A stretch of 64,000 bases of DNA from Kiritimatiellia bacterium (GCA_900771325.1 CAAGNN010000052.1:5155-69154); one strand, 5' to 3'. Numbered from the stretch's first letter, positions 40,796 to 41,078 are shown. Program-made: numbers and translations. Notes: generated by a model from the sequence alone, not told the origin.

Positions 40796-41078
40796 CCGCC
40801 CGCCCCGGGTTCGAGGTGGATCCGCCCCGGGTCCAAAGTGAATCCGCCCCAGGTTCACCTCGCATCCGCCCCAGGTTGACCCCCGACCCGCCCCAGGTCC
40901 GAGACCGACCCGCCCCGGGTTGAGGGCCGTCCGCCCCAGGTTGACCCCCGACCCGCCCCAGGTTCGAGGGCGACCCGCCCCGGGTCCGAAGTGTATCCGC
41001 CCCGGGTTGAAGGTGGACTAGCCCCGGGTTGAAGGTCGACCCGCCCCGGGTTGAGGGTGGACCCGGGGCGGGTGCGGG
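40796..41078. repeat. A-family tandem array, largest copy (about 13 units) in the efp–secA divergent promoter region
   Basis: ccgccccgggttcgaggtggat ccgccccgggtccaaagtgaat ccgccccaggttcacctcgcat ccgccccaggttgacccccgac … ending with an orientation flip gacccggggcgggtgcggg. Flanked by B-modules at 40760-40800 and 41120-41165. Confidence 0.9.

Follow-up and report, generated by a model that had tools for sequence, protein, structure and literature searches.

A 22-bp tandem repeat family, probably a hypervariable minisatellite, in promoter-upstream repeat cassettes of a Kiritimatiellia bacterium

Introduction

Mosaic intergenic repeats include the BIMEs and REP sequences of enterobacteria, the NIMEs and dRS3 of Neisseria, and BOX of pneumococcus. 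REP/BIME units alternate in orientation and are located mostly in transcribed 3' or inter-cistronic regions, and BOX possesses a variable number of the internal module boxB. In plasmid R6K, the iterons are 22-bp direct repeats.

BrickBuilt, from Porphyromonas gingivalis, is a spacerless 23-nt repeat, present in 1-22.8 copies, in which the first half of the unit is conserved (Klein et al., 2015; PMC4596501). It possesses leader and tail flanks, occupies 19 intergenic sites, carries promoter elements and is species-restricted, and a MITE of this type has small terminal inverted repeats at the element ends (PMC4596501). Putative mobile promoters are promoter-carrying segments that precede unrelated genes and are homologous to each other, with an identity of at least 80% over 50-100 nt (Matus-Garcia et al., 2012; PMC3488235).

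Here I describe a 22-bp tandem repeat, referred to as the A family, in a 64-kb stretch of DNA from a Kiritimatiellia bacterium (hereafter the window, to which all coordinates refer). Its closest published analogue is BrickBuilt. I propose that the A family is probably a lineage-specific, interspersed and hypervariable minisatellite, which forms one module of mosaic repeat cassettes occupying the DNA upstream of core promoters in Candidatus Spyradenecus, the uncultured gut bacterium to which the window is assigned.

Results

Nine arrays in the window

The window has a GC content of ~68%, with a low-GC island at roughly 4.1-9.9 kb. An initial annotation of this DNA had reported nine arrays, and Tandem Repeats Finder together with a census of the repeat core recovered all nine in place. 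They are as follows, where minus and plus refer to unit orientation:

4001-4108, unstranded: A array, 1 minus + 4 plus units; 37 bp upstream of the xer-like promoter
9931-10143, plus strand: A array, 10 plus units, M module at the end
19400-19455, unstranded: A array, 1 minus + 2 plus units, joined to an AT-rich T composite
19662-19735, plus strand: A array, 3 plus units, M module at the end
30586-30692, unstranded: A array, 1 partial minus + 4 plus units; 57 bp upstream of the malic-enzyme -10
34512-34645, unstranded: A array, 4 minus + 2 plus units; upstream of the mreB promoter
40796-41078, unstranded: focal A array, 12 minus then 1 plus units, 22 bp each
49117-49170, unstranded: A2-type units, degenerate GGTAGGCCCGGGT / CCCGGGCC cores, joined to a T composite
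55381-55470, unstranded: A array, 3 minus (1 degenerate) + 1 plus units; ~400 bp upstream of the tRNA-Asp promoter

Tandem Repeats Finder delimits period-22 arrays at 4009-4107, 9932-10141, 19663-19720, 30593-30683, 34518-34608, 40799-41065 (the focal array, with 12.2 copies) and 55402-43. The short array at 19400-19455 was recovered by the core census, and the one at 49117-49170 consists of degenerate 'A2' cores of the CCCGGGCC type, a sub-type (GGTAGGCCCGGGT) that is well conserved in related genomes. The focal array had been annotated with 13 units, a number that the count of 12 minus units and one plus unit reproduces; five of its cores are CCTGGGGCGG and one is degenerate, and the array is identical in three other assemblies.

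The exact core CCCGGGGCGG is present 37 times in the window, always inside arrays (37/37) and at a spacing of 22 bp; the exact-core census identified no isolated single site outside arrays in the whole window. Allowing up to one mismatch, there are 74 sites, against 37 +/- 6 in dinucleotide shuffles, and this number was reached in none of 100 shuffles. The units follow each other head to tail without spacers, with a period of 22 and up to 12 copies, as is characteristic of a VNTR or minisatellite (units of 10-100 bp). The census covers the 64 kb and a few tens of kb of related loci, and the same arrays were found again in up to eight independent metagenome assemblies, which excludes an assembly artefact as their origin.

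The arrays at 4001-4108 and 9931-10143 form the left and right borders of the low-GC island (4110-9930; GC 0.53-0.56 vs 0.68), which encodes a nucleotidyl-transferase/aminotransferase fusion, a DUF1015 protein and an octopine-DH-like protein. These two arrays are in direct orientation, and together resemble one split array ending in an M module. A Xer-like tyrosine recombinase (2951-3946, minus strand) adjoins the island; look-ups of this protein and of ClpB found no island-less strain, and returned only contigs that bear the island or are too short. A truncated UDP-glucose dehydrogenase-like ORF (10450-11217, 255 aa, with partial N-terminal and central domains) ends 9 bp before tRNA-Leu, and probably represents what is left of a gene at a former border of the island.

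Unit anatomy and orientation

Internal units of the window (35), of related metagenome-assembled genomes (MAGs; 29) and of divergent strains (9) were compared in an alignment. Each unit is composed of a conserved 13-nt block, ACCCGGGGCGGRT, and a variable 9-nt linker. The information content is 1.4-2.0 bits per position in the block vs 0.2-1.2 bits in the linker, and the near-invariance of the block extends to positions that were not used in finding the units. The 9-nt linker carries GAGGT or ACCTC, in either orientation, and overall the linkers (9-12 nt) form a small recurring set. The initial annotation had correctly described the CCCGGG palindrome and a spacerless 22-bp tandem that is not a CRISPR. 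It had also noted that several arrays flip orientation at one end; this flip is real, and more regular than described, as minus units always precede plus units.

The arrays are thus bipolar on either strand, with n minus units followed by m plus units in arms of 1 to 12 units, and never the reverse, in the window and in related MAGs; the sole apparent '+--' order is in L022, a contig of 56% GC. At the junction between the two arms there is a 21-bp step, and the two 13-nt blocks that meet there form a perfect inverted repeat around a 9-nt loop. Minimal pairs, of one unit in each orientation, occur in related MAGs. For the focal array, the junction is:

41039-41073, unstranded: focal junction palindrome, ACCCGCCCCGGGT - TGAGGGTGG - ACCCGGGGCGGGT; 13-bp arms, 9-nt loop

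The same structure is found at 34582-34616 and 55423-55458.

Helically phased 22-bp direct repeats with a conserved 13-nt block are also the structure of iterons and of regulator arrays. In the main rival reading, the arrays would accordingly be binding platforms for a clade-specific protein (a nucleoid-associated protein, an upstream activator or insulator, or an iteron-type binder) that would recognise one 13-nt block per two helical turns. The contrast between a conserved block and a variable linker is in line with this, as is the strict 22-bp phase with its 21-bp junction. I nonetheless consider it unlikely, for reasons that include the lack of single isolated sites in the window and of any candidate protein, and that are otherwise found in the comparison of strains below.

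It could also be proposed that the arrays are transcribed and act as RNA, as a CRISPR/TIGR-type guide array, a leader, a terminator or a protein sponge. The junction is a strong GC hairpin, and the linkers contain SD-like GGAGG and anti-SD-like CCTCC motifs. However, the hairpin is not accompanied by a U-tract, and the arrays are located upstream, not downstream, of the mapped core promoters. Arrays that include a junction fold better than shuffled sequences, as expected, but single-strand folding of the one-direction array at 9931-10143 is no better than that of shuffles (z = -0.67). A search of the window against Rfam at the gathering threshold found two tRNAs as sole matches, and none in the arrays. 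A CRISPR is defined by unique spacers of similar length and nearby cas genes; here there are no spacers, the linkers being a small recurring set, and no cas domains or tas-like genes were found in a scan of 19 window proteins, so a CRISPR or guide array was rejected. An RNA function is therefore extremely unlikely, and any activity that the arrays may have is that of duplex DNA.

Two other candidates were rejected. Avoidance of a restriction site does not account for the arrays, since CCCGGG is not avoided outside them (27 observed vs 36 expected, comparable to other GC palindromes). A coding repeat is rejected because 22 is not a multiple of 3, and because the overlapping ORFs at 9805-10453 are without the GC3 signal of real genes.

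Gene context

The arrays had been described as lying on the 5' side of genes, which is correct, and never between convergent gene ends, which holds for all convergent regions of the window (0/4 carry one). The nine arrays sit in eight intergenic regions; they are always intergenic and dispersed in the window, and more are found in MAG loci. Every intergenic region of at least 300 bp in the window holds an A array, and shorter ones hold none. As for the proposed preference for divergent or 5' regions, all four divergent regions do carry an array (4/4), but the orientation bias alone is not significant (one-sided Fisher ~0.07), and arrays are also present in four long co-directional intergenic regions. 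The bias in the window is therefore only suggestive. The arrays are located 37-400 bp upstream of extended -10 promoters, a distance that would also suit a binding platform.

In contrast, the elements of another repeat family, H, are found directly after stop codons, including at one convergent pair, and the two families therefore differ in placement. H elements (~130-150 bp) are present at 1718-1868, 2795-2941, 15355-15504 and 32831-32985, with related elements at 32104-32240, 48870-49000, 49376-49506 and 59380-59485. They consist of tandem heptamers (AGCGGAC, CGATAGA, GCTAACC and others) with imperfect inverted ends and a conserved core, ..CCGCGTGCCGCGACGG .. GGCTTTCCACMTCRAGCGCCAGC. The convergent example is the dus/xer pair, and H is also present in related MAGs.

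A small heptamer-ended element is found in the mreB-mreC spacer (window 35815-35935 vs L101 4036-4055), where it forms a clean insertion polymorphism: six other contigs have a spacer of 20 bp, against 129 bp in the lineage of the window. Both flanks of the insert carry the target hairpin GCTCGCGTAGCGAGC, suggesting that at least the heptamer-ended family is truly mobile.

Upstream of fumA's own promoter there is a candidate small RNA gene (49528-49705, ~140 nt), with a strong predicted promoter, TTGCAT-N17-TACACT, as is found upstream of tRNA-Asp (55830-55869), a long closing stem (UUCUUUGGGAG..CUCCCAAAGAA) and an intrinsic terminator. In Rfam, no family matches it even at E <= 1.

Repeat cassettes and promoters

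The sequences around the arrays contain several recurring modules, and the following features were identified, for the most part around the focal array:

40763-40803, plus strand: M module, GGTAAGCGTGGTGC...GGCCTGCTCCGCCAGGCC hairpin abutting the outer array end; direct repeat of 41127-41167
41093-41114, unstranded: Z module, 22-nt perfectly alternating pyrimidine-purine palindrome CACGCGCGCGCGTGTACGCGCG, then ATTTTAGTTA
41127-41167, plus strand: second M module, 83% identical to 40763-40803, 364 bp away
41188-41198, plus strand: extended -10 promoter motif of secA, TGTGCTATAAT, proximal end of the repeated cassette
10141-10178, 19305-19335, 19719-19749, 55261-55278: further M copies
3956-3966 (minus), 9777-9787 (minus), 19264-19274 (minus), 19893-19903 (plus), 30749-30759 (plus), 49548-49558 (plus), 55859-55869 (plus): other TGTGCTATAMT matches
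34712-34777, plus strand: core mreB promoter and leader, conserved in all 10 contigs; everything upstream lineage-swapped

The outer ends of the arrays commonly abut an M module, composed of a GGCCTG-N6-CAGGCC hairpin and TAAGCGTTTTGC. Beyond the short arm, the cassette continues with a GC linker, the Z module, a second M module and the extended -10 promoter, TGTGCTATAAT. The Z palindrome, of which a homologue is located at 19357-19378, is trailed by an AT box. The promoter motif TGTGCTATAMT is present eight times in the window, vs 0.2 expected, and every match is correctly oriented upstream of a gene; an A array is found within 150 bp upstream for five of the eight, and ~400 bp upstream for a sixth (tRNA-Asp). 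A looser version of the motif has 11 matches.

The cassettes are illustrated by the regions upstream of secA and mtnN, which are 80% identical over ~190 bp (216 alignment columns, mean column identity). The shared segment spans the array junction, Z, M and the promoter, and in both regions direct M repeats bracket the array and Z. The M, Z and GC-linker modules recur, though not at every array, and other arrays abut T arrays or a TTTTACATTTTTGT box.

Such an organization raises the possibility of a non-autonomous transposon, of the BrickBuilt MITE type, of which the arrays would be the internal minisatellite and whose transposase would be encoded elsewhere. The recurring flanking modules and the dispersed copies, with the same grammar across species, are compatible with this, and the neighbouring heptamer-flanked family provides a local precedent, with its clean insertion polymorphism and duplicated target hairpin. 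A larger mobile MITE had also been named in the initial annotation as an alternative, to be recognised by defined termini and target-site duplications. The arrays do belong to larger cassettes, with M, Z, array and promoter, but these defined boundaries are lacking: a repeat search found no terminal inverted repeats on the two full cassettes, whose ends are M copies in direct, not inverted, orientation, and no short target-site duplications were found for A-containing cassettes. The array flanks also differ (M, T array or 'TTTTACATTTTTGT'), and no transposase was seen among the window proteins. A MITE is, on this evidence, very unlikely.

Other tandem families are found in the same regions, namely T (palindromic AT-rich 22-23-mers), B (22-bp hairpins) and H, whose heptamer arrays flank a conserved core. 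The T composite (~205 bp, AT-rich) is present at 19455-19659 and 49176-49380 as inverted copies that are 94% identical, with a shorter one at 34425-34509. Its units, of 22-23 bp, are each a palindrome, AATTAA-NNNN-N-NNNN-TTAATT, whose central 4 bp differ among units yet remain complementary (CCCT/AGGG, GACT/AGTC, GCCC/GGGC). The junction from T to A is conserved, and consists of an A core, RNGGAAT and the T array. The B family is a 22-bp tandem at 10190-10349, and also at 19765-19860, 40640-40700 and 55670-55745; its units are small GC hairpins (of the GCGAGCGCAGCGAGC type) spaced by CCCCTCAC, and lie between A/M modules and promoters.

Variation between strains

A comparison of unit number between strains had been proposed as a check, and it provides the decisive evidence, revealing whole-unit differences (+22 bp, -44 bp) among near-identical assemblies. 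These are short-read metagenome assemblies, where a collapse artefact could conceivably contribute; no array reaches the length of the largest k-mer, and independent samples yield the same alleles. The window and L001 are 99.97% identical over 23 kb, with six substitutions and one indel, and this sole indel corresponds to a single 22-bp unit of the mreB array. The malic-enzyme array is the same as that of the window in seven assemblies, and exactly 44 bp (2 units) shorter, with identical flanks, in two independent samples. In a strain 97.7% identical in the malic-enzyme coding sequence, the distal units possess A2-type cores, and the promoter-proximal 130 bp are unchanged. Upstream of the same array, the loop of an M-like hairpin is inverted between the window and L112, which fits template switching in hairpin modules.

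At the mreB locus, MreB is 100% identical in 10 contigs and a 75-bp core promoter is common to all, and an A array is present in 4/10. This array has 4+2 units in the window, 5+2 in L001 and L102, and 7+2, with variant units, in L104; it is absent in L101, L103, L105 and L107-L110. The DNA upstream consists of T and A arrays in four contigs, and of heptamer arrays or other modules, without A, in six.

A more distant relative, L133 (a 16-kb piece of Candidatus Spyradenecus sp. EHIM02_bin.006, GCA_051891975.1), is 96-97.5% identical to the window in coding DNA. Its homology to the window stops at 19276 (the mtnN -10), 34712 (the mreB -35) and 40590 (just upstream of the efp promoter), and upstream of the promoters where it ends there is a sister-type array or none. 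Those upstream of mtnN and efp are sister 22-bp arrays, TAGGCCCTACCTCGNSTCGACC, whose palindrome is CCTAGG, where the window has CCCGGG, and whose order with respect to Z and M is not that of the window. In L133, the segment preceding efp is closer to window 10134-10293 than to its own ortholog, and can be read as an exchange between loci.

Gene order differs as well. The mtnN/101-aa/436-aa block is adjacent to mreB in L133 (7434-11054), while in the window (16935-34712) it is inverted and separated from mreB by ~15 kb, containing a giant C10-peptidase gene, a type II secretion-like operon and the malic enzyme. A further homology break with L133 is found at 16935, where the 436-aa gene ends. 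Arrays are also where many of the contigs from these organisms terminate, either inside or beside them.

These comparisons also bear on the binding platform introduced above. The sister type retains a palindromic hexamer despite a change at two positions (CCCGGG to CCTAGG), which hints at a sequence-specific constraint that slippage leaves unexplained, and arrays of the same superfamily are found upstream of mtnN and efp in two genomes, which could reflect positional selection. On the other hand, unit number varies freely, unrelated families (heptamers, T and B arrays) fill equivalent positions, and the mreB core promoter occurs naturally with or without an array. This presence/absence polymorphism argues against an essential role and, together with the lack of single-copy sites, against a gene-specific regulator. 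The alternative proposed at the outset, a hypervariable minisatellite, is in turn supported by differences of exact units and by complete turnover at 97% ANI.

Distribution and host

The proteins of the window are found on gut-metagenome contigs. The genus Candidatus Spyradenecus is filed under Lentisphaerota at NCBI, and source-named relatives of the window's EF-P are labelled Kiritimatiellae. I scanned one genome per species for two phased cores, which provides at least a minimal taxonomic range. Among the matches listed, true A arrays are restricted to gut MAGs, two of Ca. Spyradenecus and two of 'uncultured Lentisphaeraceae', and the others are mostly chance single matches in high-GC taxa. 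These four MAGs share the T, H, M and Z modules, with the same grammar. A scan of JGI metagenomes for three phased cores gave 12 matches, all of them unrelated simple duplications in other high-GC organisms, and a scan of viral sequences gave none.

Orthologs of EF-P with 96% and 93% identical proteins have no A array, but a different synteny and other repeat types. In L088-L097 (EF-P 96% identical), the contigs break at a different, REP-like hairpin repeat, GTCTCCGCACCGCG...CGCGGTGCGGAGAC, indicating that repeat content turns over between close lineages. Three contigs of 72% GC (L077, L084 and L085; ERZ7728xx/ERZ7729xx) contain a short 22-bp array, in an otherwise unrelated context beside other tandem repeats; its unit, ACCCGGGGCGGGTCGGGCGGCA, is identical to the A unit at 20/23 positions, and may be a distant relative or the result of convergence.

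Discussion

A fast-evolving repeat

The arrays gain, lose and swap units between near-identical strains, which identifies them as a fast-evolving repeat, and not as a CRISPR, a gene or a fixed regulatory site. They travel with the M hairpin, Z, the AT-rich T palindromes and the extended -10 promoter, upstream of unrelated genes. For a minisatellite of this kind, the inverted unit pair, which forms the palindrome, would be the seed of the array, and replication slippage, or unequal exchange among the 22-bp units, would lengthen or shorten each arm. The spread and homogenisation of arrays would result from gene conversion or non-allelic recombination involving cassettes with modules in common, rather than from a classical cut-and-paste MITE mechanism. 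The arrays would have no gene-specific function; their main effect would be to vary the length and structure of the DNA upstream of promoters, and to offer substrates for recombination through which the genome is rearranged. Among the A arrays, neither a clean insertion boundary nor an intermediate of recombination was observed.

One feature fits this model less readily. A near-invariant 13-nt block with a drifting linker hints at more than a neutral minisatellite, where it would be unexpected. Being so strongly conserved, the block may be recognised by a host factor, for propagation or for binding.

A further possibility is a chromosomal promoter shufflon, in which a clade-specific protein would recognise the 13-nt block with its palindrome, and use the arrays and the M hairpins as programmed sites to shuffle promoter-upstream cassettes between loci. 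It would explain why homology breaks off sharply at core promoters at 97% ANI, why a low-GC island lies between two arrays in direct orientation next to a Xer-like recombinase, why the geometry of the junction is like that of lox or FRT, with 13-bp inverted arms around a 9-nt spacer, and why three unrelated repeat families have a 22-bp period in common. If so, the core switch from CCCGGGGCGG to CCTAGGGCC between sister genomes would represent co-evolution with that protein. I regard such a shufflon as quite unlikely, and a lineage-specific minisatellite within mosaic cassettes as the probable explanation.

Significance

As a repeat, the A family is ordinary in kind; what distinguishes it is a turnover bounded by promoters at 97% ANI, and a 22-bp period found in unrelated families. 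Literature searches on the motif and on Lentisphaerae repeats found nothing relevant, and the family is absent from the literature searched. It marks an uncultured gut PVC clade (Ca. Spyradenecus) whose assemblies fragment at these repeats, and its arrays are ready VNTR markers for strain tracking in metagenomes. At ~97% ANI, the DNA upstream of housekeeping promoters (secA, efp, mreB, mtnN and tRNA genes) is fully replaced, with core promoters and genes untouched, making this a natural system for the study of promoter-cassette exchange and repeat-driven rearrangement. If the conserved block does bind a protein, the phylum would be expected to possess a chromatin or recombination factor that is still unknown.

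Comparison with known systems

In its workings the A family is like BrickBuilt: it is spacerless, with half of the unit conserved, is intergenic and dispersed, has a narrow taxonomic range among the matches listed, and is linked to promoters (predicted, for the A family, from the motif); flanking modules also recur, though not at every array. The differences from BrickBuilt are the bipolarity of the A arrays, whose two inverted arms join at a palindrome, the presence at their flanks of direct M repeats in place of small terminal inverted repeats, and their coexistence with at least three other tandem families. The A host belongs to a different phylum and has a GC content of 68%; a sequence relationship is not expected.

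Like BIMEs, NIMEs and BOX, the A cassettes are made of short modules in variable order, with hairpin units, and are rearrangement hot spots, but none of these shows sequence similarity to the A family. REP/BIME and REPIN are further set apart, since the A units are head to tail with a single orientation switch, and are located upstream of promoters. The A units share with the iterons of R6K a two-turn spacing of 22 bp and a conserved recognition-like block; they differ in that nine chromosomal arrays are present in 64 kb, with a hypervariable number of units and no adjacent rep gene or origin features.

Finally, the secA and mtnN cassettes reach the level of identity by which putative mobile promoters are recognised. 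Compared to these, the segment shared between A cassettes is longer, and is tied to a variable minisatellite and to other modules, with two full copies present in the window.
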